Shown: positions 3,775 to 62,915, counted from the stretch's first letter. The stretch: DNA of 64,000 bases from Candidatus Woesebacteria bacterium (GCA_016432365.1 CP066686.1:938918-1002917), one strand, 5' to 3'. The notes: generated by a model not told the origin, from the sequence alone. Numbers and translations: made by a program.

Positions 3775-3866
3775 ATTAATAACCAGCTTCGCTGTCAAAA
3801 ACTTTTTACTTTTGAATTGAATTTTTGAATTTTGATTTTTGAGTTTTAAATTAGAATTGAGGTGAA
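3775..3866. repeat. AT-rich TTTTGA(A/C)TTTT microsatellite-like dispersed repeat (rplJ-rplL spacer)
   Basis: ttttgaattgaatttttgaattttgatttttgagtttt seen directly. Confidence 0.6.
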
Positions 3867-3871
3867 TATAT

Positions 3872-4276
3872 ATGGCAGAAGAAACAACAAAAGAAAATAA
3901 AGCAGTAGAAAAATTAGTTGAAGAAATTGCAAAGCTTAGTGTTTTGGATCTTTCGGAATTAGTTAGCGCACTTCAAGAAAAACTTGGAGTTTCCGCTATG
4001 CCCGTAGCAGCCGCAGCGGCACCAGTCGCCAGTGGCGAAGCAGCTCCAGCAGCTGATGAAGGAGGTCTTAAAACAGTTGTCATGACAAACGCAGGAGGAA
4101 ACAAGATTGGTGTAATCAAAGCGCTTCGTGAGATTAACCAGAACTTAACCTTGATGGATGCAAAAGGAATGACAGAAGCGGTTCCTGCAGAAATTCTTAA
4201 AGATGCAAAAGCAGAAGATGCAAAAAGCGCTGAGGAAAAATTGAAAGCAGCCGGTGCAACAGTAGAACTGAAGTAA
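3872..4276 (+). CDS. rplL: 50S ribosomal protein L7/L12
   Basis: Classical L7/L12: N-terminal dimerisation helix, Ala/Pro hinge (AAAAAPVASGEAAPAA), C-terminal domain (GVIKALREI...GATVELK). AAGGAG-like RBS (ttgaggtgaatat) upstream. Confidence 0.92.
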   Translation: MAEETTKENKAVEKLVEEIAKLSVLDLSELVSALQEKLGVSAMPVAAAAAPVASGEAAPAADEGGLKTVVMTNAGGNKIGVIKALREINQNLTLMDAKGMTEAVPAEILKDAKAEDAKSAEEKLKAAGATVELK

Positions 4277-4282
4277 CAAATT

Positions 4283-4327
4283 ATCCCGCAATGTTTACAC
4301 TTTGTGATAAAATGCGGGATTTTTTGT
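4283..4327 (+). terminator. rho-independent terminator after rplL
   Basis: ATCCCGCA ... TGCGGGAT inverted repeat followed by TTTTTTG. Confidence 0.6.
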
Positions 4328-4434
4328 GGGTGGAACTTCGTGAAATGTTTGGGTGTGAAATAAGGTCGTATTTTCACGAAATGGTGGATAATTAAGTTGA
4401 TCAAAATTAATATTAAATACCCTATTTTCGGCTT

Positions 4435-5328
4435 TTATTGTAGAAGATAATTTATAACCTTTTGAGCTACATTGATTGTTGTTGCCTTTTCAAACCCCTC
4501 AAACTGACAGGATCTATTGACCTCCAAAACTATCCATTTGCCCTCGATATTCCGCATAAGATCTACCCCACAATAATCAAGTTTGAATAGTTTGACTGTG
4601 TTTGTGGCTATCGAACTTGCCTCGGAATCTTCCCCTATTCTATATTCTTCTACCAGTCCACCCTGAGAAAAATTACTTAGGAAATTTCCCGGCTTGGCCG
4701 TCCTCTTCATGGCACCAACGATTTTTCCGCCCAACATAACAACCCTCAAATCTACCGCGTTCGGCAAAAACCTTTGAAAAAGTAGGGCTTTTACTTTAAA
4801 GTTTGAATTAAATTTTTTAAGAAGTTCGTCAAGTTCGTTATCATTTGAGATTTTGAAAACACCCGTCCCGCAACTTCCTATAACATCTTTTGCGATAAAT
4901 GGATAGTTACTTTTGCCCCATTTAACGAGCTCCTCAATTGATGCAAAACTAAAGCTTTCGGCAACAGGCAATCCTACCGACGACAAATTAATATATTGTG
5001 TTGTTTTGTCCAAAGACGGCCACTTATCGTATGACATTTCGTTCAGGATTTTTGTTCCCTTGGATTTATACCATAAAAGGATTGCGGTTCTTAAAGGGTT
5101 GTACATACTGTCCTCTCCCAGCCCCCTTAAAAAAATTCCTTTTGGAATTGGCATTTTTTCACCCTTTAAATTGAGCTCCATTCCGTCATTTGAATAAACA
5201 ATATTTATATCTTTGTAATGGATCACCCGAAGATCAACATTAAGTTTATTAGCCTCTTCACTTAATCTTTTTGGGGCGTAGGCCATCGGCCCTGTTGTAA
5301 ATAAAATTATATCGCAATCAAAATGCAT
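4435..5328 (-). CDS. ATP-grasp amidoligase, RimK-like (4th of 4 tandem ATP-grasp genes)
   Basis: ATP-grasp C-terminal signature resembling RimK (CGVDLMRNIEGKWIVLEVNRSCQFEGFEKATTINVAQKVI). Probable start at MHFDCD (5328); longer ORF to 5388 is likely upstream extension. Confidence 0.75.
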   Translation of the reverse strand: MHFDCDIILFTTGPMAYAPKRLSEEANKLNVDLRVIHYKDINIVYSNDGMELNLKGEKMPIPKGIFLRGLGEDSMYNPLRTAILLWYKSKGTKILNEMSYDKWPSLDKTTQYINLSSVGLPVAESFSFASIEELVKWGKSNYPFIAKDVIGSCGTGVFKISNDNELDELLKKFNSNFKVKALLFQRFLPNAVDLRVVMLGGKIVGAMKRTAKPGNFLSNFSQGGLVEEYRIGEDSEASSIATNTVKLFKLDYCGVDLMRNIEGKWIVLEVNRSCQFEGFEKATTINVAQKVINYLLQ

Positions 5329-5341
5329 AGTCGGTATTGTA

Positions 5342-6277
5342 CTACATTTTAGAGGAAAAATTGGTAATAAGTGCCATAAGAAAAACATCTCTGTTTTTCA
5401 TCTCCCATTTAGGGAAACCTATCTGGTCGTTAATTTCAAATATCAGAGGAGTCCCCTTCTCATCAATTCCAAAGTCCAAACTAAACATCGGGTTGTCGTA
5501 TTCATCATAGAATTTTTTGGATATTACTCTGACTATTTTTTTGACAGATTCCGGGACTAGCCCGTAATCAATTTCCGTTAAATTTCCACCTTGGGCGGCG
5601 TTTGCCAAAAACGTTCCCGGGGCAGGAACTCTTACGTGGCACCAGGCAACCTTCCCGTTAACAACAACAATCCGCAAATCATGTTTGCCGGGTGTTATCC
5701 CGGGGATGCCGTTTGCTGTATCAACAAATTCCTGCAATATGAATTTGGTATCTTCTTTTTCGGGTTTAAATTCTTTGAGTTTTTCTTTTGAACCTATAAA
5801 AATTCCTTTACCGCGCAATCCGTTGTAAGGCTTTAGAACTATGGTTTCTGTAGAGATTTTACCCAATAGATCAAAGACGTTTTTGTATTCCCCAACCCAT
5901 AAAGTTTTTGGCATATACTCTTCAAGTATTTGATATGCCTCCCACTTATCGCAGGTTAACTCCTTAAATTTTCTGCAGTTAACAACTCTTAAATTATCAT
6001 TATTTCTTGGCGGAAAATCCAAGTCGCCTACCCAGTCGAAAACCAAATCAATTTTTATTTCATTTTCCAATCTCTCAAATGTCCCATTTTTAAATAACCA
6101 GACACCGTTAAATATTCCGTTCCCAATATAGGTTTTTTTTGTTAAAACATAGACTTCCCAACCTTGATTTTGACAAAGTTCCAGGAGCCGAATATACACG
6201 GGTCTTTTAACGGAAATGTGACTAAGAGGGTTATCTCCCACAAAATCTTTACCGAAACACATCCCAAATCGAGTCAT
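5342..6277 (-). CDS. ATP-grasp amidoligase (YheC/D- or ST-type-like)
   Basis: VLKPYNGLRGKGIFIG ... FSLDFGIDEKGTPLIFEINDQIGFP ATP-grasp motifs; stop/start overlap with neighbouring genes. Confidence 0.7.
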   Translation of the reverse strand: MTRFGMCFGKDFVGDNPLSHISVKRPVYIRLLELCQNQGWEVYVLTKKTYIGNGIFNGVWLFKNGTFERLENEIKIDLVFDWVGDLDFPPRNNDNLRVVNCRKFKELTCDKWEAYQILEEYMPKTLWVGEYKNVFDLLGKISTETIVLKPYNGLRGKGIFIGSKEKLKEFKPEKEDTKFILQEFVDTANGIPGITPGKHDLRIVVVNGKVAWCHVRVPAPGTFLANAAQGGNLTEIDYGLVPESVKKIVRVISKKFYDEYDNPMFSLDFGIDEKGTPLIFEINDQIGFPKWEMKNRDVFLMALITNFSSKM

Positions 6278-7170
6278 TTTGAAAGTTTCTTGTCTAAAAA
6301 TTTAATCAACTCCGATATTTCCGGACTTACCGATGTGTCGTAATTAAATCCCGGTCCGCGGTTTACTTCAAATATGTAAGGCTTTCCTGTATCCTTTTCG
6401 ATAGCCAGGTCAACCCCAGCGATTTGAATATTCAGACACTTTGCAGCATTAACTGCGATTTCTTGCATCTCGGGACTAATAGAAACTACGTCAAGATATC
6501 TTTCGTATTCATTCATATTTGAATAATTTAATTTTAATTGAGAATAGTCTCTTGGAACTTTTGTATGTACGACTTTTACTTCATCTCCGAGTACTAACAA
6601 TCTGTATTCGCTCTCTAACGGAATATATTTCTGGAAAAGATATTTTGCAATTCTGCCTTTTTCTCCAACTTTTTTCGGCAAATCTTCAAATTGTTTTTTA
6701 TCGCTAATTGCATAAATTCCTGTCATGTGTTGCCCGACCAATTCTTTTGCAACAATCGGAAAACCCAACTCCGAAATAATATAGTCTTCATATCTTTTGA
6801 TATTAATACCCATACAAAATATTGTAGGCGGAACAGGAATGCCACCAATCGAAAGTTTTAAATAAGAAGTAAGCTTATCTCCGGCCGCCCCGATTTCACT
6901 AAAACTTCTGTCAAAATAAGGAACCTTGAGTTTATCTAAACATCTTGCCAAACTTCCCGCCAATGCAAAATGCGAATGGTCTGCACGACGGATATACACT
7001 AGGCCAAAATCTGAGATATTGACACCCTTTACCAGGACTTGGAGGTTACTTCCGTTTATATCAAACAATAGGTCCGTAAATGTGGCTATTATGGCTCCCG
7101 ATTTTTCCCCTAAAATTTCTGCCTTCGACCCAATTTTATCGAACAGGATTAACGTTCTTTTTTTTGTCAT
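6274..7170 (-). CDS. ATP-grasp amidoligase, RimK-like
   Basis: GFPIVAKELVGQHMTGIY ... QIAGVDLAIEKDTGKPYIFEVNRGPGFNYD; 4-nt overlap with flanking genes. Confidence 0.75.
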   Translation of the reverse strand: MTKKRTLILFDKIGSKAEILGEKSGAIIATFTDLLFDINGSNLQVLVKGVNISDFGLVYIRRADHSHFALAGSLARCLDKLKVPYFDRSFSEIGAAGDKLTSYLKLSIGGIPVPPTIFCMGINIKRYEDYIISELGFPIVAKELVGQHMTGIYAISDKKQFEDLPKKVGEKGRIAKYLFQKYIPLESEYRLLVLGDEVKVVHTKVPRDYSQLKLNYSNMNEYERYLDVVSISPEMQEIAVNAAKCLNIQIAGVDLAIEKDTGKPYIFEVNRGPGFNYDTSVSPEISELIKFLDKKLSK

Positions 7171-8459
7171 TTTGTATAGTCATCAACCTTAACCAAAAAA
7201 TTTTGCAGGTCGCGGCGGCCAATTATCATGGCATGTTTGAGCCCGCGACGCCCAGCAATAGTTCCGACTGTGTTAACAAGACGCCCTGCTAAATAATACC
7301 TTAAATTGATTGTGGGGCGCATCTCCGAACCCATGGAGGTCGTGACTTTCTTCTGCCAAAGTATGTTCTCCTTAGTTAAAAGTCCCAAATTTTCGGCTAA
7401 TTCCTTATCTATTGAACTATTCCAAGCCCCAGTATCGACTTTCGCCAAAACTTCTACTTTCTTTTTATCCCCGGTTATCACCTTCACCGTTTCCTTGGTT
7501 CCAATTGTCTTAATGCCCTCTTCCAACTGTTCTGCATCTTGATATCTCCCGGCGAACAAGAGTTTGGCGATTCTAACTCCATGATTAGCATCGGTAATTT
7601 CCAAATCATCTACTCTGTCAAGTCTGCGTCTTAACCCCTCACCATTTGCAATTTGAATCTGAAGTCCCGGCTGAGCGTTCATTTCGAGGACCATTGGGCC
7701 CTTTTCCGGATGAATAACGATATCAATTCCCGCATAACCAAGTCTAGAAGCTATTGAAGCATTTACTGCGGTCGTAAGAACCAAATCCCAATTGGGTATC
7801 TTTATTCCTCGCAACTTCTTCTCAGTTCCCGGTTTGAATACAATTTGATTCCCGTGCCAAATCGCTTTTGTCGTAATGCCCGTTGCAATATCAACACCAA
7901 GTCCCAAAGCCCCCTGATGCAAGTTAGCCCTACCTCCGGATTCCTTTGTCGGCAACCTAAGCATTGCCATAACAGGTATTTTATTAAAAACTATTACCCG
8001 GACGTCGGGAGTCCCTCTATATGCCCATTTTCTAAATGCTTCGGCCCTACCCACATATTCCTGCGCAAAAGCAACATCAGGTTCGTTTCCCATTGAATAG
8101 GCACCTTCGAGAATATCTAGAGTGTGAAGTTTCAGATCTGCTGTCGTTATTTTTTCTTTTTGAGTAGTCAACCACACGCCGTCCTTAAGCTTCTTTTTTA
8201 CAACTACTATCCCCTCTCCACCTAAGCCACGACTGGGTTTGAGTGCAAACCTGTCGGGAAAACTATCCCAATCAAAACTTAAAATTTCTGTAGGATCTCT
8301 AAATATTTTTAGGATTTTTGGAGACGGAACCCCGACTCTTTTTAAGATCCTTTCTGTTTGAATCTTAGAATCGGCAATCTTTTTACCTCGTGCGGTGTTG
8401 TAGCGGTATGCATACAATTGAGTGCGGGCATTTAGACCGAGAATGGAAGAGATTTTCAT
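7167..8459 (-). CDS. fusion: RimK-related alpha-L-glutamate-ligase-like ATP-grasp domain + clan-AA (retropepsin-like, DTGA) aspartic protease domain
   Basis: N-terminal ~300 aa ATP-grasp (LKPSRGLGGEGIVVV..., GIDIVIHPEKGPMVLEMNAQPGL); C-terminal ~120 aa with VDTGAWNS motif typical of the RimK-associated retropepsin-like 'ATP-dependent zinc protease' family. Confidence 0.7.
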   Translation of the reverse strand: MKISSILGLNARTQLYAYRYNTARGKKIADSKIQTERILKRVGVPSPKILKIFRDPTEILSFDWDSFPDRFALKPSRGLGGEGIVVVKKKLKDGVWLTTQKEKITTADLKLHTLDILEGAYSMGNEPDVAFAQEYVGRAEAFRKWAYRGTPDVRVIVFNKIPVMAMLRLPTKESGGRANLHQGALGLGVDIATGITTKAIWHGNQIVFKPGTEKKLRGIKIPNWDLVLTTAVNASIASRLGYAGIDIVIHPEKGPMVLEMNAQPGLQIQIANGEGLRRRLDRVDDLEITDANHGVRIAKLLFAGRYQDAEQLEEGIKTIGTKETVKVITGDKKKVEVLAKVDTGAWNSSIDKELAENLGLLTKENILWQKKVTTSMGSEMRPTINLRYYLAGRLVNTVGTIAGRRGLKHAMIIGRRDLQNFLVKVDDYTK

Positions 8460-8573
8460 AATTTATAAGTCAAAAGTTAAAAGTCGAAAGTCAAAAATAC
8501 AATTCAAAATTATAAAATTTCTGAAGCTGATTTTGACTTTTTAATTTAAATTTTGACTTTTGCATTTTGATTT
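8460..8573. repeat. dispersed TTTTGACTTTT/AAAAGTCAAAA repeat block
   Basis: gtcaaaagttaaaagtcgaaagtcaaaaa ... ttttgactttttaatttaaattttgacttttgcattttgatttttaactttt. Confidence 0.6.
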
Positions 8574-9461
8574 TTAACTTTTAATTAGTTTTCTGAATCT
8601 ATAAAACTCCATTACCCGGAGGCCAGTATATCTACCAAGGATCAAATCAAGCACAGCTACTCCTACTAGAGAAATCTCGGGGTTGAGGAGAACAAAAGAT
8701 TGCAGCGGTTTAAGTGTCAGGAAAAAGAACGATATAAAAGAGATTAAAAGAGTTTCAAAAGTCAGATTGGCCGCAGTTTCTACGCTTTTACCCAACTGTA
8801 CCCGGGTAAAATCTTCGGCCAAAAGAATCATGATTAGAACCGCAAAAATTGAAACGTTGGCTAGATCGGGAAATCTGATCAGTGGGGCTGAAAACAAAAT
8901 CCCCAAAACTCCAAACACAACTGCCCAAAGAATCAATGCCATACGGGGCAAATATTGCAATTTGATCTTAACTTTACGAAGAATCATACGCATAGCAGTT
9001 GAAACCGCAACAATTACAAGAAACAGTCCAATTCCTACAATTGGCCCTGTAGCCACAAAAACTACGGAAAGAGCGGCGGGAAGAAAGATTCCAAATCCCC
9101 TAACCCCAATCACGTTGCGCGTGAAGGCTATTACGAATGCAACCAAGGGTAAAAGAAGTAGAAGAACAATAGTATTTGCAGGAACCCCCGCAGCAATCGC
9201 TCCTCTTATGGCGTATTTTACGGGGTTTGTTGGCCAAACTGAGCCCAATTTTTGATCTTTAAGTATGGTTTCGAGTGGTCCCAAAGATTCCTGTGATTTT
9301 TGGGTAATATCCACACGTGGTGCCTCGGGCGTGGGTGCTGCTGAAGGGGTCGCTGTTTCAGTGACAATTGGGCTAGGCGTGGGAAGATCCCTGGCAAAAA
9401 TCGGTGCAGGCACAAAAAGAAGCCCTGAGGCCACGAACAATGTAGCTACAAACTTTCGCAT
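8574..9461 (-). CDS. 7-TM membrane protein with signal peptide and Pro/Thr-rich linker (7TM partner of RimK-related ligase systems; lacks the transglutaminase-like head)
   Basis: Signal peptide (MRKFVATLFVASGLLFVPAPIFA), PT-rich segment, then seven predicted hydrophobic helices; first gene of the minus-strand ATP-grasp operon. Confidence 0.55.
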   Translation of the reverse strand: MRKFVATLFVASGLLFVPAPIFARDLPTPSPIVTETATPSAAPTPEAPRVDITQKSQESLGPLETILKDQKLGSVWPTNPVKYAIRGAIAAGVPANTIVLLLLLPLVAFVIAFTRNVIGVRGFGIFLPAALSVVFVATGPIVGIGLFLVIVAVSTAMRMILRKVKIKLQYLPRMALILWAVVFGVLGILFSAPLIRFPDLANVSIFAVLIMILLAEDFTRVQLGKSVETAANLTFETLLISFISFFFLTLKPLQSFVLLNPEISLVGVAVLDLILGRYTGLRVMEFYRFRKLIKS

Positions 9462-9637
9462 GGGTTAATTTCTCTAAAGAGTACGTATAGTATACCATTT
9501 TCCCCTGCCAGACTGCCAGTTTCAGACAAATCACCCTGTAGTCTTGACTATAAAGCATAACTAGCTATAATTTGACCTTCAGTAATAGCTCATTCACATT
9601 TGTGAAATTAAAAAAATATATCCTGAAAGGATGCCCA

Positions 9638-10549: not shown

Positions 10550-10565
10550 TTTCACAAGTTAGTAC

Positions 10566-10628: not shown

Positions 10629-10647
10629 AAAATACCATCCTGTAGTG

Positions 10648-37750: not shown

Positions 37751-37878
37751 AATTCCAGAGAAAAACTAAAAAGGAAAAGCGAAAAAGTTTTTCACTCTTC
37801 ACTTTTAGCTATTAGCTTCCTGACCTGCATTATATCAGAATTCAAAGATATCATTGGGAGTCTGATATAATATGAGCC

Positions 37879-39232: not shown

Positions 39233-39233
39233 C

Positions 39234-42361: not shown

Positions 42362-42377
42362 GTAGTATACTAAATAT

Positions 42378-49784: not shown

Positions 49785-51542
49785 TCACATCTTCTCAGGA
49801 GCGTCAATCCCTAATAGCTGAAGCCCATTCTTAAGCACTTGACCCGTTCCTGCAGTTAGTGCGAGTCTGAAATTCCCCACTTCTTCGTTCTTCGTTTTTC
49901 CTTCTTCGCTTATTATTCTATTATGCGCGGGGCCTAAGGCTTCGTCTTTCGTGCGCTCGTCATTTGTATTCAAAATCCTATTGTGAGCGTAAAAAGTGTT
50001 GAATTTTGAAGCTAAATCATATAAATAGTTGCACAAAAGATTGGGTGAGTAACTTTTGGCTGCATTGGCAATTACCTCGGAAAATCGGGACAAAGCTCTT
50101 AAAACGGTCAGCTCTTCTATTTCTAATTTTATATTATTCGCATATTCGCTCATTCGCTTATTTGAAGCCTTTGCGAGCACGGAATTAGTTCGAGCAACTG
50201 TATATTGCAGATAGGGCCCGGAATTGCCTTCCAGGGAAATGCTTTCCTTAAGATCAAATGAGATGTCTTGCGCAAGACCTGTCTTTAAAAATGAATATTT
50301 AACTGCGCCTACTGCTATCATTTCTGCCACGCCATCTTCGGTTTTATACGCTTTTTTGATTGACTCCTTGGCGTCATCAAGTATTTTTTCTCCAAGAACC
50401 ACATTGCCGGTCCTTGAACTCATTTTCCCCTCTTTCAGACGAACCCAACCATATGGAACATGGAACTCCCTGCCTTTTGTTTCCGGCTCTATAAACTCCA
50501 AAGCTTTGAAGATCACTTGAAAATACGCGCTTTGTTCTGGACCAACAGTGTGAATCAGTTTGTCGGGATTGTATTCAGAAAACTGAAGCTTTGCCAAACC
50601 CAAATCTTTGGCCTCATAGGTTGGAACACCTTTACCTGAAATAAAAACCCTGTCATGCAAGCCATATTCACTGCCGGGGAAAATAATTGCGCCCTCGCTT
50701 TCTTTTAAAATCCCTTTTTTAAGAGCTTCCAAGGCAATTTCTTTACCCTTTTGGTAGACTTCGCTCTCAAAATAAAATCTATCAAACTTCGTATAGACTC
50801 TTTTATATATTTCGGCAAAATAATCCAAACTCCATTGTCTTGTCTCGGAATACAATTTATTTATTTCATCATCGCTCTTATCATAAATAATGCCATTTAT
50901 GACATGAATTTCTTCTTTGGCTTTTTCATCAATTTCATAGGCACTTGAGCCTGTCGAATACGCCTTGCCTAAATACTCAGCCCGTTTTTTAACATCTTTT
51001 GGGTCATCAAAACCAATTCTTTTAATTCCCCATAACGCCTTTGCTATATGGAGACCAACGTCGCCCTGATAATTTGCCCGTACAACTTCTGCCCCGTTTG
51101 CCTCGTAAAGCCTAGCCAATGTTTCACCTGTTGTTATGTTTCTAAGGTGGCCTATATGAAAAGCTTTATGAGTATTGGGGTGAGCATACTCAAACATTAT
51201 TTTTTGACCTTTAAGAGAATCACTTGTGCCATATTTTTCTTTTTCCTCTTCAATCTGCATCAAATTACTAACTAGGACATCAGTTTTTAGCCAAAAATTA
51301 ATAAAACCCGGGCCGGCAACTTCAATTTTGTCTACAAATTTTGATAGTTCGGGAGATTGGGATAATTTGGATTTTATTTCTTCCGCAAGCGCCCTTGGAT
51401 TCTTGCCTTCGCTTTTTGCCATGATTAGCGCAATATTGCACGAGTAGTCGCCGAAATTTGGATTCTCGGTGAATTCCAAACTAACCACCTTTTCCCCCGA
51501 CACTTCCGTTAACACATTTATTATTCGGTCTTTAATCGACAT
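49785..51542 (-). CDS. argS: arginyl-tRNA synthetase
   Basis: Class I motifs HIGH (FHIGHLRN) and KMSK (KMSSRTG), ArgRS N-terminal add-on domain, 585 aa. Confidence 0.9.
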   Translation of the reverse strand: MSIKDRIINVLTEVSGEKVVSLEFTENPNFGDYSCNIALIMAKSEGKNPRALAEEIKSKLSQSPELSKFVDKIEVAGPGFINFWLKTDVLVSNLMQIEEEKEKYGTSDSLKGQKIMFEYAHPNTHKAFHIGHLRNITTGETLARLYEANGAEVVRANYQGDVGLHIAKALWGIKRIGFDDPKDVKKRAEYLGKAYSTGSSAYEIDEKAKEEIHVINGIIYDKSDDEINKLYSETRQWSLDYFAEIYKRVYTKFDRFYFESEVYQKGKEIALEALKKGILKESEGAIIFPGSEYGLHDRVFISGKGVPTYEAKDLGLAKLQFSEYNPDKLIHTVGPEQSAYFQVIFKALEFIEPETKGREFHVPYGWVRLKEGKMSSRTGNVVLGEKILDDAKESIKKAYKTEDGVAEMIAVGAVKYSFLKTGLAQDISFDLKESISLEGNSGPYLQYTVARTNSVLAKASNKRMSEYANNIKLEIEELTVLRALSRFSEVIANAAKSYSPNLLCNYLYDLASKFNTFYAHNRILNTNDERTKDEALGPAHNRIISEEGKTKNEEVGNFRLALTAGTGQVLKNGLQLLGIDAPEKM

Positions 51543-55349: not shown

Positions 55350-55709
55350 ATGAAAAAGAAAGTTTTTTTGATTTTGATCGTGTTTATTGCCTTAACCGCC
55401 TGCGCACCCAAAGCTGTAAATTCGACTGCCGTTGAAGCACCCAAGCCATCTGAATATACAAACCTTGAGGCCACCGTCTTTATTGGCAACTACTGGCAGG
55501 GGGCTTGCGGGGATTCGTGGATGATCTTTGTACAGGCATCGGATTCAGGAAGTGTAACGCTTCTTGAGGGGAATCCCAACGTCAGCCTTGTTGCAATCCC
55601 ACGCAAAGCGCCAGGCGCTTTTTTCTCAGGATGTAAATTCATCCGAGTTGTTCCCAACGAACAAGCCGGCAACGGAGACTGGAAAGTAAAAATTTACGGC
55701 TTGCCGTAA
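55350..55709 (+). CDS. lipoprotein (signal peptide + lipobox LTAC)
   Basis: MKKKVFLILIVFIALTAC; AAAGGAG RBS. Confidence 0.55.
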   Translation: MKKKVFLILIVFIALTACAPKAVNSTAVEAPKPSEYTNLEATVFIGNYWQGACGDSWMIFVQASDSGSVTLLEGNPNVSLVAIPRKAPGAFFSGCKFIRVVPNEQAGNGDWKVKIYGLP

Positions 55710-55718
55710 AAAAATTCA

Positions 55719-55760
55719 AGAAGAACTGAAGGGAAACCCCTTTCTTTCAGTTCTTCTGCT
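55719..55760. terminator. bidirectional hairpin terminator between convergent genes
   Basis: GAAGAACTGAAGG ... CTTTCAGTTCTTC stem; flanked by A-run and T-run. Confidence 0.5.
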
Positions 55761-55794: not shown

Positions 55795-56628
55795 CTACTT
55801 TCCAATCCAATACTTCTCGCCATCTGTCGAAACAATAACATCACCACCCATATCAGTTCTCAATACTCTTATGTTATATTTACCTAACAAGTCCAATATT
55901 TCTTTGTGTGGATGGCCGTAAATATTATTCTTTCCGACACTAATTACCGCAACTTGAGGATATAATGCTTTTACAAGCATTTCGGACAGACCATTCTTGC
56001 TTCCATGATGATTCACTTTGAGATAGTTAACCCCTTCGACTTCGCCCAGGGCTGATAGCCCATCACTAATTTTGTTTTCAACATCCGCTGTAAAAATAGC
56101 CTTGAATTTGCCAAATTTAAGCAGATCCACAACGCCAATATTATTTGCATTGGGATCACTGAATCCACTATCCGGATTAAGTATATCTAAATATATCATT
56201 CCTACCCTGAGTACCTGACCTGTATGTGGCCTTATGACCTTTGTACCACTACCCCCCACCTCTTTCTTTAGCACTTGATAGTCAACACTGCCAGATTCAA
56301 CATTGTTATACAAAAAATTGTCCACTTTATATCTTTTAAAGACTTCTATTAGCCCAAAATAATGATCTTTCTGTGGATGGGTTGAAATTGCAAGTTCTAT
56401 CTCTCGGTCCCAAAATGGAACATGCTTACTAAGACATTCCAGAACTCTGTTGTTTGGTCCGCCGTCGGTTAAAATTTGAATATTCTTATAAATAACAAGG
56501 ATTGCGTCCCCCTGCCCCACATCACAAGCGACTATGTGTAAATACCCATCCGGCAACTGAAATATTGCCATTACAATTACCGATAAAATTAAAATTAAAG
56601 TTATATAGAGATATTTCCAAATTTGCAT
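55795..56628 (-). CDS. ComEC/Rec2 C-terminal metallo-beta-lactamase-fold domain protein (separate gene)
   Basis: MBL motifs (ACDVGQGDA, STHPQKDH, VNHHGSKNG); own N-terminal TM. Confidence 0.7.
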   Translation of the reverse strand: MQIWKYLYITLILILSVIVMAIFQLPDGYLHIVACDVGQGDAILVIYKNIQILTDGGPNNRVLECLSKHVPFWDREIELAISTHPQKDHYFGLIEVFKRYKVDNFLYNNVESGSVDYQVLKKEVGGSGTKVIRPHTGQVLRVGMIYLDILNPDSGFSDPNANNIGVVDLLKFGKFKAIFTADVENKISDGLSALGEVEGVNYLKVNHHGSKNGLSEMLVKALYPQVAVISVGKNNIYGHPHKEILDLLGKYNIRVLRTDMGGDVIVSTDGEKYWIGK

Positions 56629-56629
56629 A

Positions 56630-56735
56630 ATTCAAAAGTCAAAATTTAGAAATCAAAAATACAAGTTAGAAGTAAAAATACAAACTTTTGACTTTTTACT
56701 TGAAATTTTGAGTTTTGACTTTTACCTTTTGACTT
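56630..56735. repeat. dispersed TTTTGACTTTT repeat block between the two ComEC genes
   Basis: caaaagtcaaaatttagaaatcaaaaatacaagttagaagtaaaaatacaaacttttgactttttacttgaaattttgagttttgacttttaccttttgactt. Confidence 0.6.
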
Positions 56736-57807
56736 AGCTAAATAGTTCTACTATTCTCACAAACCACCACAAAAGTGAATAGCTTAACCAAAGTATTATT
56801 TTACCGAAAAATGGCATGACAAGTCCGACAACCCCACCTACGCTTCCCAAAATCATAATATAGGGAATCGTCCAAAGAACTAGGGCGTTAATTAAAGGAG
56901 ACCATATATTAAACTGTCCAAATGTAACAAACAATATCGGGGCTACACCGATTTGAGCTGCCAAAGATGTAGAAAGTCCTTCTCTAAGTAAACTGGGGAT
57001 CTTAAGTAACTTTGAATTGATTCTTTTTTCAAAAAGCATAAGTGAGGCCGTTGAAACAAAAGACAATATAAAACCAATGTCGGTTATCCAACTTGGGTTA
57101 TATACAAGCATTGCCCCAGCTGTCAGGAACAAGATCCGCATTGTAGACACCATCCGCCCAGTTCCCTGCCCCAAAAAAATAATAGAAGACATTATAGCTG
57201 CCCTCACGAGCGGTGCATCAAAACCCGACACAAAGAGATACAAAATAATACCTAATATAGCAAACACTATCGCTTTTCTTCTGGTTAAGTACAATGTAAG
57301 AACTCCCATCAAAAAAGATACAACGAAAGTTATGTTGGTTCCTGATGCAACTACAACATGGGCCACTCCTGCAAGTTTTGTCTGATTATAAAAATCCGGT
57401 GAAAGCGCCCCCTTGGACCCAATTACAATTCCGCCCAATAGACCCCCTTCCGGCTCCGGTAAAGCCTTTTGATAAAAAGAAATTATGTTGTTTCGAAATA
57501 GCGATGTAAAACTTTTTGAAGGACTGGTACTTATTAATTTTGGATCCTCTAATTTTCCGCTGCCGACAACTCCCTCAACAACAATTTTATCGCCGTATGA
57601 TATTTCCGGAAAAAGCGGGAGCTTAATTTTTAGTCCGGTAACTTTTAAATATTGCCCGGTGGAATAACGGACCGGGTCGGACAGTATTGTGGTAGTTATA
57701 CGGACCCGGTCGCCAATATGGTAAACGGGGCGGGTTGTGAAATATCTAAAAATAATTAGAAAGATTAATAGAAACCAAATTAAGTATTTCATTAAGTCAA
57801 AAATCAA
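56734..57807 (-). CDS. ComEC/Rec2 N-terminal membrane competence domain protein
   Basis: Polytopic; ...LAGVAHVVVASGTNITFV... resembles ComEC competence domain. Confidence 0.7.
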   Translation of the reverse strand: MIFDLMKYLIWFLLIFLIIFRYFTTRPVYHIGDRVRITTTILSDPVRYSTGQYLKVTGLKIKLPLFPEISYGDKIVVEGVVGSGKLEDPKLISTSPSKSFTSLFRNNIISFYQKALPEPEGGLLGGIVIGSKGALSPDFYNQTKLAGVAHVVVASGTNITFVVSFLMGVLTLYLTRRKAIVFAILGIILYLFVSGFDAPLVRAAIMSSIIFLGQGTGRMVSTMRILFLTAGAMLVYNPSWITDIGFILSFVSTASLMLFEKRINSKLLKIPSLLREGLSTSLAAQIGVAPILFVTFGQFNIWSPLINALVLWTIPYIMILGSVGGVVGLVMPFFGKIILWLSYSLLWWFVRIVELFS

Positions 57808-57905
57808 AATTTAGAAGTCAAAAATACAAGTTAAAATTTAAAATTGTAACTACTTTTGCCTTTTGAATTGTAATTTTGAATTTTGATTTTTGCATTTTAA
57901 ATTAT
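57790..57905. repeat. dispersed TTTTGA repeat block between ComEC-N and ComEA
   Basis: agtcaaaaatcaaaatttagaagtcaaaaatacaagtt...ttttgaattgtaattttgaattttgatttttgcatttt; first half nearly identical to the start of block 62790. Confidence 0.6.
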
Positions 57906-58558: not shown

Positions 58559-58755
58559 ATGCGCATTTCATTAAGCATTGCTACTCTAATCATCCGCCTG
58601 AGTTCCCCATGAGGTTGAAGATCGCTTTGTGATGCCATATTCGTATCAAATGAAGGCCTATCTAAAGTTTCAGGATGTTCCTGCAAATACTTGCGTTCAC
58701 TGTCCGCAATGTGTTTGTTCTCCATCGCCTGTAAGTATCGTTCGAGTAGGCTCAT
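58555..58755 (-). CDS. small hypothetical protein (66 aa) between leuS and comEA
   Basis: ORF with 4-nt overlaps on both sides; no family. Confidence 0.3.
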   Translation of the reverse strand: MSLLERYLQAMENKHIADSERKYLQEHPETLDRPSFDTNMASQSDLQPHGELRRMIRVAMLNEMRI

Positions 58756-61364
58756 ATTACAAAATTAATTACCTTACCGGATATAAAAATTGTCTTTTTA
58801 ATAGTTTGCCCTTCCAACCACTTTGTCACATTGGGGTCAGATTTGGCCAATTTGGTTACCTCAGATTCTTGCTTCGAGATTTCAGATTCCAGCTTCATTG
58901 ATGCGCGAACTTTTCCGTTGATTTGGACTACCACCGTAACCTCATTCTGTACAATAAGCTTGGGGTCGTAGGATGGCCAAGGAGACGCATGAATACTAAA
59001 AGGCATACCTAATACCTCTACCCATATTTCTTCCATCATGTGTGGCGCAAAAGGGGCCATGAGGCGTGCCAAAGCACTTAAGACCTCAGAAGTCTGATGA
59101 CTGATATTTGGTGTCTGAATCGAAGTTTGATTTTCGATCTTCGTTTTTCCGACTTCGTTTCTGATTTCAGACTTCTGACTTCCGGCTTCTGTTAGTGTAT
59201 TCACCAGTTCCATGAGAGATGAAATTGCCGTATTAAATTTATAATTTTCTACGTCCTCCCCCACTTTTTTGATGGTTTGATGAAGCTTTGATAAAACTTC
59301 TGTGTTTTCCTCTGTACTATGTACTTTGTACTCTGTACTAAAGAGTCTCCAAACCCTGCCTAAAAACCTGGCTATTCCTTCGACTCCGGTTATACTCCAC
59401 GGTTTCATTACGTCAAACGGTCCCATAAACATTTCATAAACACGAAGCGTGTCGGCTCCGAACTTTGGAATAATATCGTCAGGCGTGATTACATTCCCCC
59501 ATCTTTTGCTCATCTTGCGGGAATCGGGTCCAAGTATCCACCCCGGGGCACGGAGCTTTAAAAATGGTTCGTCTCCTACAGATTTATCGATTAGACCTTG
59601 GTCAAATAAGAACTTCCAAAAAAATCTGGCAAAGAGCAAATGCTGAACAACATGTCCACCCCCCACATAATCATCAACCGGAATAATATTTTCTTTTGAA
59701 GCAAATTCGTTTTTATTCTTTGGGTCGCAGAACCTCATAAAATACCAAGAGGAATCAACGTAGGTATCCATTGTGTCAACTTCGCGCTTTACCTGCTTTC
59801 CACAAATAGGACAAACTACATCTTTCTGAAAAGTTTCGGATCTGGCAATGGGACTTTCACCGTGAGGTAAAAAATCTACATCAGAAGGTAACTTAACAGG
59901 TAAATCTGTGTCGGGAACCGGTTGCCAACCATCGTCTTCGCAATAAACCATGGGGATCGGACAACCCCAATAGCGCTGACGGGAAATTAACCAGTCACGG
60001 ATGTGATATGTAACGGTTCGCTTCCCCAAGCCCTTGTCCTCAAACCAATCCATTGTCTTTTGCAATCCTTCTTCAAAATCTAAACCGTTCAAAAAGTCGG
60101 AATTAATAAACCGACCCTCCATTCCGTGCTCGATAACCTGATCCTTCTTTGTAATTTCGGAGGCGTCGCCGTCTTTACCTACAATGACACGCACAATCGG
60201 AAGCTTATATTCCTGAGCAAATTCAAAATCGTTTAAATCATGTCCCGGACAACCTTGCACCGCCCCAGTACCCACACCAGCAACCACAAAATCAGAAACC
60301 CAAACAGGAACTTCTTTATTGTTTATGGGGTTGGCTACATATAATCCTGTAAACACACCGGTTTTTGTCTTATTGGACTTATTAGCCACATTTGTCGAAT
60401 TAGATGAACTAGAAAGATGCTCTTTTATATATTTTGCAACACTTTCCTGATAGGCTTTTGGCAACTTAAGTTCCTTAAGTAGCTTATGCTCCGGAGACAG
60501 AACCAAAAATGTCATGCCAAAATTTACAGGAGCTGTTGTGAAAACTTCTATTTCTTTATCCGAGCCAACAACTTTATAACGAATATTTATCCCCTCTTTT
60601 CTCCCAATCCAATTAATTTGTTGTCTTTTAACTTCATCTTCCCAATCAATTTTTTCTAATCCCGATATTAAACGGTCGGCGTAGGCAGTGATTTTAAAGA
60701 ACCACTGATCCATATCTTTCTGTATTACTTCTGTATCACACCGCTCACATTTACCCTCAACAACCTGCTCGTTAGCTAAGACTGTTTCATCTTTAGGGCA
60801 CCAGTTTACGGGAGATTTCTTTTTGTAGGCCAAACCTGCTTTAAATAACTGAATAAATATCCACTGTGTCCATTTATAAAATTCCGGCGAGCTTGTGTCG
60901 ATTTCCTTATCCCAATCATAAGACATGCCACTTATTTCCAGCTGACGCCTAAATGTTTTTATATTCTCGTGAGTGGATTTATCAGGGTGGATTCCGGTTT
61001 TGATTGCATAATTTTCCGCCGGAAGCCCAAACGCATCCCAACCCATTGGATGCAAAACTGAATGCCCCTTCATCCTAAAATATCGGGAGAGGATATCTGT
61101 ACCGACATAACCCTCCAGATGTCCTACGTGCATCGAGGCACCTGATGGGTATGGAAACATATCAAGAACATATCTCTTTTTCTCCCCTGTTCCGGGAGTC
61201 TTGTAAATTTGTTCCTTAGCCCACTTAGCCTGCCATTTAGCCTCTACAACCGAATGGTCATATTCTTTTTGCTTGCCCGTCGAAGCCTTGGCGGAGTCGG
61301 GCCACTTGGCTTCTGTTTTTTTATGGTTGTACTTATCCATTTTGCAAATTATATATCTTGTCAT
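58752..61364 (-). CDS. leuS: leucyl-tRNA synthetase (with in-frame low-complexity insert)
   Basis: HMGH (HVGHLEGY) and KMSKR (KMSKRWGN) class I motifs, LeuRS editing and anticodon domains; insert EIRNEVGKTKIENQTSIQTPNISHQTSE encoded by repeat-like DNA at ~59100-59200. Start likely at 61340. Confidence 0.9.
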   Translation of the reverse strand: MTRYIICKMDKYNHKKTEAKWPDSAKASTGKQKEYDHSVVEAKWQAKWAKEQIYKTPGTGEKKRYVLDMFPYPSGASMHVGHLEGYVGTDILSRYFRMKGHSVLHPMGWDAFGLPAENYAIKTGIHPDKSTHENIKTFRRQLEISGMSYDWDKEIDTSSPEFYKWTQWIFIQLFKAGLAYKKKSPVNWCPKDETVLANEQVVEGKCERCDTEVIQKDMDQWFFKITAYADRLISGLEKIDWEDEVKRQQINWIGRKEGINIRYKVVGSDKEIEVFTTAPVNFGMTFLVLSPEHKLLKELKLPKAYQESVAKYIKEHLSSSSNSTNVANKSNKTKTGVFTGLYVANPINNKEVPVWVSDFVVAGVGTGAVQGCPGHDLNDFEFAQEYKLPIVRVIVGKDGDASEITKKDQVIEHGMEGRFINSDFLNGLDFEEGLQKTMDWFEDKGLGKRTVTYHIRDWLISRQRYWGCPIPMVYCEDDGWQPVPDTDLPVKLPSDVDFLPHGESPIARSETFQKDVVCPICGKQVKREVDTMDTYVDSSWYFMRFCDPKNKNEFASKENIIPVDDYVGGGHVVQHLLFARFFWKFLFDQGLIDKSVGDEPFLKLRAPGWILGPDSRKMSKRWGNVITPDDIIPKFGADTLRVYEMFMGPFDVMKPWSITGVEGIARFLGRVWRLFSTEYKVHSTEENTEVLSKLHQTIKKVGEDVENYKFNTAISSLMELVNTLTEAGSQKSEIRNEVGKTKIENQTSIQTPNISHQTSEVLSALARLMAPFAPHMMEEIWVEVLGMPFSIHASPWPSYDPKLIVQNEVTVVVQINGKVRASMKLESEISKQESEVTKLAKSDPNVTKWLEGQTIKKTIFISGKVINFVI

Positions 61365-61379
61365 ATACTTTTAGAAGAC

Positions 61380-62060
61380 ATGCAATTCGTCTCACCCATT
61401 TTGGCCGTCATCACAGTTGTTCTTGCCTTTGTAATCTCCGTAAGCCCGCTTTCGGGTTGGGGTCTACAGATTACTGCGCTTATGGTCATCATTTATGTCG
61501 GAACTTCTTTCCTGATTAGAAAAGGTATGCTTTCAAGTAGCATCAAGGTTACCTTGGATGTTATTATCTTCTCCCTTTCTGTCTCGCTTTTACTTTTTAC
61601 AACAGGAGGGTTTAATTCACCTGTTTTCTTTTTAAGTTATTTTTTACTTTTTGGGGTTTCTTTATTCTCCTCCCCAATTACCGCAACAGCAATTACGGTT
61701 ACCTTTGCCCTGCTTTTTGTTGTCTCACCAAAACAGGACTTCTGGATCGATCTACTTCAAATCGGATCATTGCTGGCTATTGCCCCCCTATCCGTCCTTT
61801 TTGGAAAACAATATTTAAAGGTACTGGAAGATAAAAAGATGATTACGGGCTTGTCCCAAAAGATTCAGAAAAATAAAGTCGACGTGACCACCTGGACCGA
61901 AGGGGATTTTAGAAGGCGCGTACTAAGAATTCAGGAGTATCTGCAAAAACTTCTTGATGACCCGAAGGTAGAAACAGATAAAAAAGAAAGAATCAAATCT
62001 TTGTACAGGCAGATTTATGACTTATTTTTAAGCGGAACAATCATGGAGAAAAAAATTTAG
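61380..62060 (+). CDS. polytopic membrane protein with C-terminal cytoplasmic helix
   Basis: ~6 hydrophobic helices; start chosen at Met 61380 to avoid overlap with leuS. Confidence 0.45.
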   Translation: MQFVSPILAVITVVLAFVISVSPLSGWGLQITALMVIIYVGTSFLIRKGMLSSSIKVTLDVIIFSLSVSLLLFTTGGFNSPVFFLSYFLLFGVSLFSSPITATAITVTFALLFVVSPKQDFWIDLLQIGSLLAIAPLSVLFGKQYLKVLEDKKMITGLSQKIQKNKVDVTTWTEGDFRRRVLRIQEYLQKLLDDPKVETDKKERIKSLYRQIYDLFLSGTIMEKKI

Positions 62061-62063
62061 TAT

Positions 62064-62798
62064 ATGGCAAAGTTCATCCCCGCGTTTTTCGTTTTATCGC
62101 TATTCGCTCTTCGTTCTTCGCTCTTCGTTGCCCCCGTGCTCGCCCAAGCCGAAATCAATTCTCCAAATTATATTATTCAGATGCCAAATTTAAATTCCGG
62201 CGCAGGGCTTCCCACCTCGAGTAACTATAAAGTGAGTTCGACCATAGGCCAGAACGCTGCTGGTCTGTTTTCGTCCGCAGGATTTCGCGTTAAATCCGGA
62301 TTCCAATACATTTACTCAATCATTCCTTTCTCTTTTACTGTTTCATCTACTTCCATCAATTTTGGACACCTTGTGGCGTTAACACCGTCAACTGCCACCA
62401 ACACCCTGACTGTAAGTAGCGGAGGCGCGGGAGGATACCAGGTTAAGGCCTCGGAAAACAATCCTTTAAAGATTGGTAGCACAGGAACCACAATCGCCGA
62501 CACAAGTTGTGATAGCACCTGCAGCGAAACCACGGCCGGAGTTTGGACGTCATCTTCCCGATACGGTTTTGGATTTAACATGTCCGGGGATGATATCCCG
62601 GCCGACTTTACCAACTCAACCTATTACCGCCAATTTGCAGACCGAGCAAGCGCCGAAAGCCCTCAAGTTGTAATGTCATCTATTTACGTGGGAACAAACA
62701 GGCAATCAACGGTTACATACAAGGTAAACATTTCCGGCGTCCAACAATCGGGAATTTACAATAATATAATTACATATACAGCAATTCCGAGTTATTAA
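62064..62798 (+). CDS. secreted hypothetical protein (signal peptide)
   Basis: MAKFIPAFFVLSLFALRSSLFVAPVLAQA signal peptide; S/T/G-rich. Confidence 0.5.
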   Translation: MAKFIPAFFVLSLFALRSSLFVAPVLAQAEINSPNYIIQMPNLNSGAGLPTSSNYKVSSTIGQNAAGLFSSAGFRVKSGFQYIYSIIPFSFTVSSTSINFGHLVALTPSTATNTLTVSSGGAGGYQVKASENNPLKIGSTGTTIADTSCDSTCSETTAGVWTSSSRYGFGFNMSGDDIPADFTNSTYYRQFADRASAESPQVVMSSIYVGTNRQSTVTYKVNISGVQQSGIYNNIITYTAIPSY

Positions 62799-62915
62799 AG
62801 TCAAAAATCAAAAATAAAAATGCAAAAATTCAAATCAAAAATCAAAAGTTCTTTTAATTTTTTTAACTTTTTAATTGTATTTTTTACTTTTTACTTTTTA
62901 CTTTTTACTTTTAGC
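62790..62915. repeat. dispersed repeat block running into the start of ORF 62820 (encodes its signal peptide)
   Basis: agtcaaaaatcaaaaataaaaatgcaaaaattcaaatcaaaaatcaaaag ... ttttttactttttactttttactttttacttttagc. Confidence 0.55.

Follow-up and report, generated by a model that had tools for sequence, protein, structure and literature searches.

Heptanucleotide tandem arrays in operon junctions, protein loops and signal peptides of a Woesebacteria genome region

Introduction

Why bacteria favour tandem repeats of 7-base units has been a long-standing question since the cyanobacterial STRR sequences. The families STRR1-3 reportedly consist of the units CCCCAGT, TTGGTCA and CAACAGT and are said to have been described by Mazel et al. 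in 1990. In this study, arrays of heptanucleotide units (heptamers) were analyzed in a 64,000 nt stretch of a Candidatus Woesebacteria genome (GCA_016432365.1, CP066686.1:938918-1002917), which is called the window in the following and whose positions are counted from its first letter. The host is a small-genome member of the candidate phyla radiation (CPR; Patescibacteria) with a contig of approximately 1.08 Mb, and the window has a G+C content of 41%. The M16 peptidase, leucyl-tRNA synthetase (LeuRS) and ComEC proteins of the window are 100% identical to those of a Candidatus Woesebacteria metagenome-assembled genome (1,078,985-bp contig).

According to the works cited in PMC4679880 and PMC4692102, heptamers are the commonest class of long simple sequence repeats, for which polymerase slippage was proposed; Mrazek et al. 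(2007) and the heptamers of Calothrix are likewise cited there. Tandem heptamers are also found outside simple intergenic arrays, as in the 23S rRNA intervening sequence (IVS) of Coxiella, in which GACAGAT units are located at the stem together with an RNase III cut site (PMC4990558).

An initial annotation of the window had described a dispersed AT-rich repeat which fills intergenic spacers and is inserted in frame into conserved enzymes. The analysis presented here leads us, with modest confidence, to a different reading: the blocks are probably heptanucleotide tandem arrays, found lineage-wide in Woesebacteria and other CPR bacteria, which originate locally and are confined by selection to tolerant places, and not copies of one AT-rich element. 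The Woesebacteria provide a clean test bed for this question, with tiny, gene-dense genomes and hundreds of assembled relatives in which the same junction or loop can be seen empty, filled or differently filled.

Materials and Methods

To count arrays, segments of 21 nt were required to match at no fewer than 16 positions at the lag in question, and order-3 Markov replicas served as the null model. For a stricter count, 18 of 21 matches and dinucleotide shuffles were used. The sample of relatives comprised 80 loci around M16 orthologues from species-representative genomes and 80 metagenome loci around the ComEC channel half (ComEC-N). Two further loci, L081 and L082, are the syntenic regions of the two closest genomes; the other loci are likewise given by their L numbers. 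Covariation was analyzed with RNAalifold on one hairpin family. Indels in the unit register disrupted that alignment and no pairs were predicted, and per-sequence fold z-scores were used instead.

Results

The repeat period is seven nucleotides

In the window, 17 arrays with a period of 7 were found, compared to a mean of 0.2 (maximum 1) in the Markov replicas. The other periods between 3 and 13 gave 0 to 2 arrays each. At the stricter threshold, 7 period-7 arrays remained versus none in the shuffles. With both null models the enrichment was restricted to period 7 and its multiple 14, and no period-7 array was present in a 50-kb control region of E. coli K-12. The initial annotation had named a whole-genome frequency no higher than expected from base composition as a refutation; within the window the arrays exceed this expectation. 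Nine of the 17 arrays are located mostly within the non-coding 11.9% of the window (P = 5e-5).

Direct reading of the sequence and Tandem Repeats Finder (TRF) located every site that had been listed before, each as a period-7 array with 4 to 7.6 copies. The units of 11, 8 and 7 nt proposed at that time describe real repeats; all are readings of the single 7-nt period. Among the units of the window are AAAAGTC, AAAATTC, AAAATTA, AAAATTT, AAAAGTT, AAAAATC, AACGAAG, AACTAGT, AGTACAN, CGCTCTT and CGAAGAA. The AT-rich TTTTGAC-type unit is merely the commonest flavour, and heptamers that are not AT-rich are present as well. A cyanobacterial source, which heptamers might suggest, was rejected, since the cyanobacterial HIP1 palindrome (GCGATCGC) occurs once in the window and the three proteins named above are 100% identical to Woesebacteria proteins.

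The same preference was found in the relatives. The M16-orthologue loci contained 137 period-7 arrays, while each of the remaining periods between 4 and 13 gave 10 to 49; the ComEC metagenome loci contained 79 versus 0 to 15, with period 8 as the runner-up (15). Dozens of distinct period-7 units were identified across Woesebacteria, other Microgenomates, Parcubacteria-type lineages and Thermomicrobiales (63% GC). A single proliferating AT-rich repeat, as suggested previously, is therefore too narrow a description. The period is specifically 7, the units differ between sites and between related genomes, and the arrays are found solely where the sequence is free to vary.

In the Chloroflexota, G+C-rich period-7 units (GACTACT, GGACTGA and CGAACCT) were observed near the M16 gene (L069-L076; Thermomicrobiales, approximately 63% G+C). 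Over all sampled loci, neighbouring arrays were inverted with respect to unit orientation in 23 cases and direct in 8. Self-complementary units were considered as a driver of hairpin formation and rejected, since 30 were observed versus 26 expected from the unit composition, which is no enrichment.

Hairpin modules occupy stop-to-start gaps

Five intergenic modules and one array without an inverted partner were delimited in the window:

3738-3852, + strand, palindromic heptamer module in the rplJ/rplL gap (fold -27 kcal/mol, z = -2.4)
8463-8586, - strand, palindromic heptamer module with the arms AAAAGTC / GACTTTT (fold -25.8 kcal/mol, z = -3.0)
56632-56735, - strand, palindromic heptamer module in the gap of 105 nt between ComEC-N and the metallo-beta-lactamase half (ComEC-C) (fold -24.4 kcal/mol, z = -3.35)
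57797-57903, - strand, palindromic heptamer module in the ComEA/ComEC-N gap, which is bounded by the stop codon at 57905 and the ATG at 57792 (fold z = -1.95)
62797-62912, + strand, A-rich (AAAAATC) followed by T-rich (TTTTTAC) arrays at the junction of PamT and open reading frame (ORF) 62820, with the ATG of ORF 62820 inside the A-arm
36272-36349, - strand, A-rich arrays (sense AAAAGTT) immediately before the start codon of WecG and extending into its first codons, without an inverted partner

The five modules have a common layout, in which approximately 5 to 7 A-rich heptamers are followed by a loop of 10 to 25 nt and by approximately 5 to 7 T-rich heptamers; the second arm is an approximate reverse complement of the first. 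All of them lie between co-directional genes and occupy the gap from stop to start codon, with a hairpin length of about 100 nt. On the mRNA, the A-arm comes after the stop codon, and 0 to 24 nt separate the end of the U-arm from the next start codon; four of these start codons lack a Shine-Dalgarno sequence. For four of the five modules, one long hairpin rich in A and U was predicted, with folding energies of -18 to -27 kcal/mol and z-scores of -1.95 to -3.35; the hairpin of the 62.8-kb module is weak (z = -0.75).

The intergenic copies had been described as alike beyond the unit, and this could be confirmed: aligned over about 120 nt, the five modules have a column identity of 71% and common stretches of 16 to 30 nt; the identity is inflated, since low-complexity period-7 sequence aligns easily. 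The longer stretch noted earlier as common to two of the blocks corresponds to 16 nt (AAGTCAAAAATCAAAA) at approximately 57794 and 62799.

In the rplJ/rplL module, the A-arm (AAAAGTT-like, 3738-3775) overlaps the end of rplJ, and the T-arm (TTTTGAA-like, 3803-3852) ends 9 nt before the Shine-Dalgarno sequence GAGGTG of rplL; L10 and L7/L12 were assigned by Pfam. The module at 8463-8586 is located in an ATP-grasp cluster between a 7TM_transglut gene (8574-9461) and an ATP-grasp gene (7167-8459), both Pfam-assigned, and its arms run from the stop codon of the upstream gene up to 4 nt short of the next ATG. The arrays upstream of WecG are kept, with substitutions, in L001 and L002.

Several known types of element were compared with the modules. 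A scan for classical intrinsic terminators over 55-64 kb, which covers three of the five modules, picked none of them and did detect GC-containing hairpins at the convergent junction 55693-55744. The motif TTGAC(T) was rejected as a −35 box, since a promoter-like scan gave 17 hits versus 22 in shuffled sequence and no −10 partner was found at the right distance for the downstream genes. An RNA-family search of the whole window at gathering thresholds, extended to E <= 1 over 36280-36780, returned two tRNAs only. TIGR arrays consist of units of about 36 nt with edge and loop repeats and two spacers and are located beside a Nop-domain Tas gene (PMC12045711). They were rejected because TRF detected no period near 36 nt and the arms are about 50 nt of 7-nt units; no Nop-domain Tas gene was found among the proteins scanned, a subset of the ORFs of the window.

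The ComEC and ComEA junctions in relatives

In the window, ComEC is encoded by two ORFs (55795-57792), the channel half (56734-57792) and the metallo-beta-lactamase half (55795-56628), which match positions 110-374 and 423-663 of TIGR00361. The metallo-beta-lactamase half starts with a transmembrane helix of its own. The repeat had been reported to sit exactly at this break, and both the position and the break are genuine. However, the split is present in 120 of 120 listed Woesebacteria homologues (each about 352 aa), and the halves overlap or abut in most relatives. The repeat therefore did not cause the split and fills an old junction.

In 32 of 55 relatives the distance at the ComEC-N/ComEC-C junction is between -4 and +10 nt, i.e. 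the genes are overlapping or abutting. Longer spacers sit exactly between the conserved C-terminus ...IFx* and the N-terminus MKIWKY, and most of them are inverted heptamer arrays of unrelated units, for example AATTTTC...GAAAATT (with the T-arm first), CAGTATT..., (GTATATN)4AGGG...CCC(NATATAC)4 and, in L081, AAAAATC.... No duplicated flank was found when filled and empty ComEC junctions were compared. At the ComEA/ComEC-N junction, a distance of at most 8 nt was found in 13 of 58 relatives. Among the distinct spacers of at least 60 nt at this junction, 17 of 24 form one near-full-length hairpin with z <= -2 (median -3.2). The hairpins are thus additions to junctions that are otherwise overlapping or abutting.

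In Woesebacteria GW2011_GWB1_39_10, two near-identical copies of a GC-richer palindrome (TGTCATTGCGAGGAGC...GATTGCTTCG...CCTCGCAATGACA) were observed in adjacent ComEA and ComEC junctions (L082 7800-7900 and 8950-9070; L093). The same junctions carry AT-rich heptamer hairpins in the window.

In-frame arrays in enzymes

Five arrays were located in frame within four enzymes:

17120-17153, - strand, array in the M32 carboxypeptidase, sense AAAATTA, encoding KNLKLKIKN
35884-35924, - strand, array in the WecG/TagA glycosyltransferase, sense TTCAAAA / TTAAAAA, encoding SKFKIKNSKLKIE
41676-41718, - strand, array in the inter-domain linker of the M16 peptidase, sense GTCAAAA with four perfect units, encoding VKSQKSKVKNISQ
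59100-59200, - strand, decayed array in LeuRS, sense GAAGTCA... (GTCAGAA/GACTTC-type), an insertion of about 30 aa (SQKSEIRNEVGKTKIENQTSIQTPNISHQT) in the anticodon-binding domain
59313-59340, - strand, second array in LeuRS, sense AGTACAN x4 (TAGTACA), at another indel hot spot, encoding STEYKVHSTE

The peptides quoted earlier for M32 (IKNLKLKIKNYEQ), WecG (KFKIKNSKLKIE) and M16 (KSQKSKVKNISQNFK) were confirmed by translation, and the GACTTC-type array in LeuRS is present. All internal arrays are A-rich in the sense strand, which gives Lys, Asn, Ser, Gln and Glu residues. As RNA, the in-frame enzyme arrays are unstructured.

In-frame insertion, as proposed initially for the conserved enzymes, applies to LeuRS alone. 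Its segment of about 30 aa is missing from the closest database homologues and is thus lineage-specific; its palindromicity is not significant (z = -1.3). The M32 segment is 6 to 7 aa shorter than in the Pyrococcus carboxypeptidase (PDB 1k9x) and 17 homologues, and the hypervariable M16 linker is no longer than in 18 orthologues. In WecG, the array replaces the usual KLQxxYPKLQIQ segment with unchanged length compared to 30 of 32 aligned orthologues (two are 4 aa longer and one is shorter); compared to TagA (PDB 7mpk) it is 2 aa longer. In comparison with L001, 24 of 36 nt of the WecG array are identical in register and without an indel, so that the array results from substitutions or short conversions and not from insertion. 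The spot is heptamer-periodic with other units elsewhere, namely AAGATTC (L009), AATCTAG (L003) and TCAAAAC (L011).

Tolerance of the repeats in unconstrained segments of essential proteins, suggested previously, is in agreement with the structural models. In the AlphaFold model of the M16 peptidase (mean predicted local distance difference test score, pLDDT, 77), residues 214-237 are coil and pLDDT falls below 50 at 221-226. The LeuRS model is weak (pLDDT 61); both array segments are low-confidence loops and residues 732-756 are below 50. Other heptamers were found at the M16 linker spot in 4 orthologue loci and at a second hot spot in 6, and L081 carries CAACAGT x6 at the second LeuRS hot spot.

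The length of LeuRS in the clade ranges between about 620 and 917 aa. The editing domain PF13603 gave no match in the LeuRS homologues P0147, P0230, P0234 and P0238 and in the 662-aa L082 protein (5168-7156).

Signal peptides encoded by repeats

One copy had been described as encoding the signal peptide of ORF 62820, which could be confirmed and extended to PamT, a CPR pilus protein:

62083-62129, + strand, T-rich in-frame array in the signal peptide of PamT, CGCTCTT, encoding the hydrophobic core

In the signal peptide of ORF 62820 (MQKFKSKIKSSFNFFNFLIVFFTFYFLLFTFSDKVAA, directly followed by QE), the n-region, rich in Lys, is encoded by the A-arm of the 62.8-kb module and the h-region, rich in Phe and Leu, by its T-arm. 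T-rich sense arrays are thus located at the hydrophobic signal-peptide cores of both genes. For both, the mature protein is conserved among the three genomes and the leader is built from a different repeat unit in each. The mature sequence QEVSLSISPP is conserved in the orthologues of ORF 62820, in which the leaders originate from other inverted arrays (GATTTAA / TTAAATC in L082). In the PamT orthologues the units are CTCTATT (L081) and CTYTGTA (L082), with AQAEIxSPNYIIQMPNLNSG conserved in the mature protein.

The leader of the L081 orthologue of ORF 62820 (2180-2310; CAATCTA-type) is encoded by inverted period-8 arrays (CAAATCTA x3 / TTATTTGC x4), which means that registers other than 7 occur. 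Two different genes for secreted proteins in L082 (1184-1231 and 3701-3745) have an identical repeat-encoded 5′-end of 45 nt (MIYDLRFKIKTK...), as if the leader had been copied between neighbouring genes. The region 62064-63767 of the window is a CPR Pam pilus locus, with a weak PamT match (NF058579).

Change between genomes and assemblies

Compared to L081 and L002, whose coding DNA is approximately 75-85% identical to that of the window, the arrays are either unchanged or completely different. The unchanged class comprises the WecG array (2 differences in 44 nt) and the LeuRS insertion, which is shared with L081 (6755-6860) with 1 difference in 101 nt. Within this insertion, 34 of 34 third codon positions are identical, compared to 64% in the rest of the gene (P = 3e-7), and the high-identity tract is about 180 nt long. 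Candidate explanations for this freeze at synonymous sites are a recent transfer and a constraint at the nucleotide level. Completely different between the genomes are the M16 linker, the second LeuRS hot spot, both signal peptides and both ComEC spacers; the latter are 64-66% identical between the window and L081, which is near the shuffled level.

Two short-read Logan assemblies (SRR12113421 and SRR12113422; L083, L084), probably from the same population, are identical to the window across the 56.6-kb module. Both contigs end at the same base in the T-arm of the 57.8-kb hairpin; the palindromes break short-read assemblies.

Further arrays and translation starts

Besides the A-arm at 3738, the second LeuRS array (59313-59340) and the PamT array (62083-62129), three arrays that the initial annotation had not listed were found:

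432-464, + strand, AACTAGT array that covers the stop of ORF 13-444 and the spacer between this ORF and ORF 471-1277
37760-37818, strand not assigned, short inverted heptamer pair, A-rich and T-rich (GAAAAAC ... TTTTCAC), in the spacer between divergent genes upstream of mreB
49881-49908, - strand, in-frame array, sense CGAAGAA (TTCTTCG on the + strand), near the C-terminus of ORF 49785-51542, encoding EEGKTKNEE

The AACTAGT array indicates that the phenomenon is wider than the AAAAGTC-type unit.

A Shine-Dalgarno-like motif was found in the start regions of merely 17 of 50 genes of the window. In many genes, a TATAAT-like box ends 6 to 10 nt before the ATG (e.g. 37879, 29744-31048, 16966-18462 and 58752-61340), which suggests widespread leaderless mRNAs in this genome.

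GTATATN stems and PF05635 genes

In two distantly related Woesebacteria, a 117-aa PF05635 gene (23S rRNA intervening-sequence protein, bAvd-like) is located inside inverted (GTATATN)n arrays just upstream of the M16 gene (L002 9400-10015 and L037 9540-10000), in opposite orientations. The two encoded proteins are 74% identical, their M16 proteins far less, and the corresponding position of the window (42368-42398) is without such a gene. In L137, the same stem, (GTATATN)n AGGG...CCC (NATATAC)n, occurs 'solo' at the ComEC junction and has a loop of 8 nt. The PF05635 gene and its GTATATN stem look like a cassette.

A general link between PF05635 and heptamer flanks was rejected, since flanks were found solely at the two genes of the short type and genes of the long type, including that of the window (39328-39885), have none. 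This window gene encodes a 185-aa protein, homologous to a PF05635-containing L081 protein, directly after tRNA-Arg and tRNA-Pro. It has 9-nt tandem repeats at 39630-39647 and 39696-39725.

Between mreB and wecG, approximately 300 nt of non-coding sequence (36350-36740) are 83% conserved with L001 and L002 and have degenerate inverted GTATATN flanks. Similar GTATATN arrays were found at this locus in L028, L032 and L038. The block gave no Rfam match, even at E <= 1, and may be a small RNA or a regulatory region.

Discussion

Probable local origin and selection

If the arrays originate locally, they would arise and be homogenised by misalignment in a 7-nt register at replication or repair. Slippage is the explanation already proposed for heptanucleotide simple sequence repeats, and it is taken here from the literature. 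Selection would then remove the arrays except in tolerant places. At tight operon junctions, solely self-pairing versions might survive, with the A-arm before the T-arm in this genome. At the base of such a hairpin, the stop codon of the upstream gene and the start codon of the downstream gene would again be close to each other, which could explain the tolerance of some 100 additional bases between genes that overlap or abut in relatives. Secondarily, the hairpins may be cut by RNase III or slow down exonucleases, as MITE and REP hairpins do. Inside genes, the arrays would overwrite linkers, surface loops and signal peptides by in-register substitutions or conversions, mostly without a change in length; A-rich sense arrays would yield Lys/Asn/Ser/Gln loops and T-rich ones Phe/Leu signal-peptide cores. 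The absence of the hairpins from many relatives argues against an essential role.

A number of observations weigh against this account. Slippage would leave the choice of the register 7 without explanation, the mechanism being borrowed, and the renewed proximity of stop and start codons is something we infer. Approximately three quarters of the relatives have a ComEA/ComEC-N spacer of at least 19 nt, so a hairpin is possibly wanted there. The LeuRS insertion without any synonymous change is not expected of a neutral loop. The five hairpins of the window are closer to each other (71%) than to their L081 orthologues (64-66%), a likeness within the genome that also fits copy-and-paste spread or a genome-specific binding factor.

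Copying of a unit is the core of an alternative close to the 'proliferating repeat' of the initial annotation, which takes the intergenic modules for non-autonomous mobile palindromes, similar to MITE, REP or Correia elements, that are copied into gaps as units of about 100 nt with the heptamer arrays as their arms. It could account for five copies in 64 kb with a common architecture, their column identity and shared stretches, for presence and absence falling exactly between stop and start codons in relatives, for the two near-identical GC-rich palindromes in adjacent L082 junctions (TGTCATTGCGAGG...CCTCGCAATGACA) and for the GTATATN stem, which is solo in L137 and encloses a gene in opposite orientations in L002 and L037. 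However, the comparison of filled and empty ComEC junctions yielded neither a target-site duplication nor a terminal consensus, orthologous junctions of close relatives carry different units instead of the same element, and the period-7 low complexity inflates the alignment identity. No transposase was identified in the 64-kb window, in which no systematic transposase scan was made. In-frame arrays that evolve in place without a change in length, as in WecG, cannot be accounted for by such elements, and we regard this alternative as unlikely. A related and still less probable idea is that the heptamer-array stems are a distinct class of self-propagating CPR hairpin module, kin to the rRNA intervening sequences, with the 7-nt register as the footprint of a protein which makes, binds or processes them. 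Such a stem would land precisely between stop and start codons, either empty, as in the AT-rich modules of the window and in L137, or with cargo, i.e. the gene for a PF05635/Avd-like four-helix bundle in L002 and L037 or the 36350-36740 block. If so, the puzzles of the STRR heptamers and of the IVS would share one answer, and the synonymous freeze of LeuRS would reflect a recent spread or a function at the nucleotide level.

The hairpins and arrays might instead be RNA signals. They could serve as sites for RNase III, as stability elements or as attenuators, or as arrays bound by a cold-shock protein (Csp) or S1, with a footprint of 7 nt, at starts without a Shine-Dalgarno sequence. This would agree with the hairpin being kept during sequence turnover at the ComEA/ComEC-N junction in most relatives, with U-arms that end 0 to 10 nt before such start codons and with the frozen synonymous sites of the LeuRS insertion. 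TAACTGA heptamers are found in the same position and were proposed to bind S1 or Csp, with one CspB protein per heptamer (PMC4679880), and Correia hairpins are cut by RNase III (PMC10969869). Nevertheless, the chance that a signal function is the explanation is rated low. The genes overlap or are less than 10 nt apart in the 32 of 55 (ComEC) and 13 of 58 (ComEA) relatives mentioned above, so that a hairpin is not required, and the wide diversity of units speaks against a sequence-specific binder. Ordinary GC-containing terminators are located at convergent gene ends, and no module scanned (55-64 kb) scores as one; arrays that are unstructured as RNA are also found in frame within enzymes. Contingency loci, in which slippage of the unit number switches genes on and off, appear very improbable. 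The perfect four-unit arrays in M16 (41690-41717) and ORF 62820 (62881-62908) would be suited to such phase variation, 7-bp repeats have been reported to drive that of the hmw adhesins in Haemophilus, and the affected genes include two for surface or pilus proteins. Most affected genes, however, are housekeeping genes (LeuRS, M16, M32, WecG, rplJL), and most arrays are interrupted. The phase-variable length envisaged earlier found no support: two independent assemblies are identical across the 56.6-kb module, and the copy numbers of the WecG and LeuRS arrays are unchanged between genomes whose DNA differs by about 15-18%. Base or amino-acid composition, or an assembly artefact, as the source of the blocks has a practically negligible probability: the repeats are AT-rich and their peptides are Lys/Asn-rich and of low complexity, but the shuffles and Markov replicas refuted composition (about 0.2 versus 17 arrays), and the same arrays are present in independent assemblies, with arrays at orthologous spots in dozens of others.

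Implications

On the reading favoured here, local origin followed by selection, operon genes that used to overlap could accommodate about 100 nt of repeat DNA between them, provided that the repeat folds back on itself. Parts of proteins can also be written by repeat DNA, namely signal peptides and the loops of essential enzymes such as an aminoacyl-tRNA synthetase, which would be a route to new low-complexity segments in reduced genomes. The breaks at hairpins in short-read assemblies may be one cause of fragmented CPR assemblies and of miscalled start codons.

Comparison with known systems

With the heptanucleotide simple sequence repeats and STRR sequences, the arrays share head-to-tail 7-nt units, several unit families per genome, an excess over other periods, a mainly intergenic location and slippage as the proposed origin. 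At least three head-to-tail copies of 7 nt, the period-7 excess and the intergenic preference are all found in the window. Its units match none of the named STRR1-3 families, so that the arrays are the same kind of repeat and not a member of these families. In contrast to STRR, the arrays occur in a CPR bacterium of about 1 Mb instead of a cyanobacterium and have A/T-rich units. Inverted pairs in stop-to-start gaps make up most of the intergenic copies, and the in-frame copies overwrite loops and signal peptides.

The TAACTGA repeats of marine Beggiatoaceae are similarly located a few nucleotides upstream of starts, apparently replacing the Shine-Dalgarno sequence, including starts of ribosomal protein genes, and some lie in ORFs; however, they consist of one fixed unit with 1 inverted set among 170 (PMC4679880), whereas many units are used here and inverted pairs are the rule in gaps. 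The GGGAATC/GGGGAYT repeats of Xanthomonas and Nostoc are also intergenic, partly form inverted pairs and occupy the same positions in related species with variable length and sequence, but they are G-rich and form quadruplexes (PMC4692102), in contrast to the A/T-rich arrays without G-tracts described here.

REP/BIME, ERIC, Correia/NEMIS and MITE sequences resemble the modules as dispersed, co-transcribed intergenic palindromes of about 100 to 150 nt which form long hairpins. Those elements have a family consensus, terminal inverted repeats and target-site duplications (PMC10969869); here the arms are heptamer arrays, orthologous sites carry unrelated units, and no duplicated flank was found at the ComEC junctions. 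The Rickettsia palindromic elements (RPE) are likewise repeat DNA of a reduced genome which is translated in frame in housekeeping enzymes at positions compatible with the fold. An RPE inserts approximately 150 bp of palindromic sequence and carries a conserved peptide (PMC10969869), whereas three of the four enzyme arrays add no length, are non-palindromic and are unstructured as RNA. The 23S rRNA IVS with an S23p/PF05635 ORF, as in Coxiella, has in common with L002 and L037 a stem of inverted flanks around a gene for a PF05635 four-helix bundle. The IVS lies inside rRNA genes (PMC4990558), while the cassettes were found in the intergenic DNA of relatives, and the AT-rich modules of the window are gene-free.

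Taken together, the system is a heptanucleotide simple sequence repeat in kind. It is partly REP/MITE-like in its hairpins and RPE-like in LeuRS alone; flank duplications at the ComEC junctions and palindromic in-frame insertions, which define those families, were not found. New are the host lineage, the stop-to-start hairpin architecture with turnover of the units, and the loops and signal peptides written by repeats.

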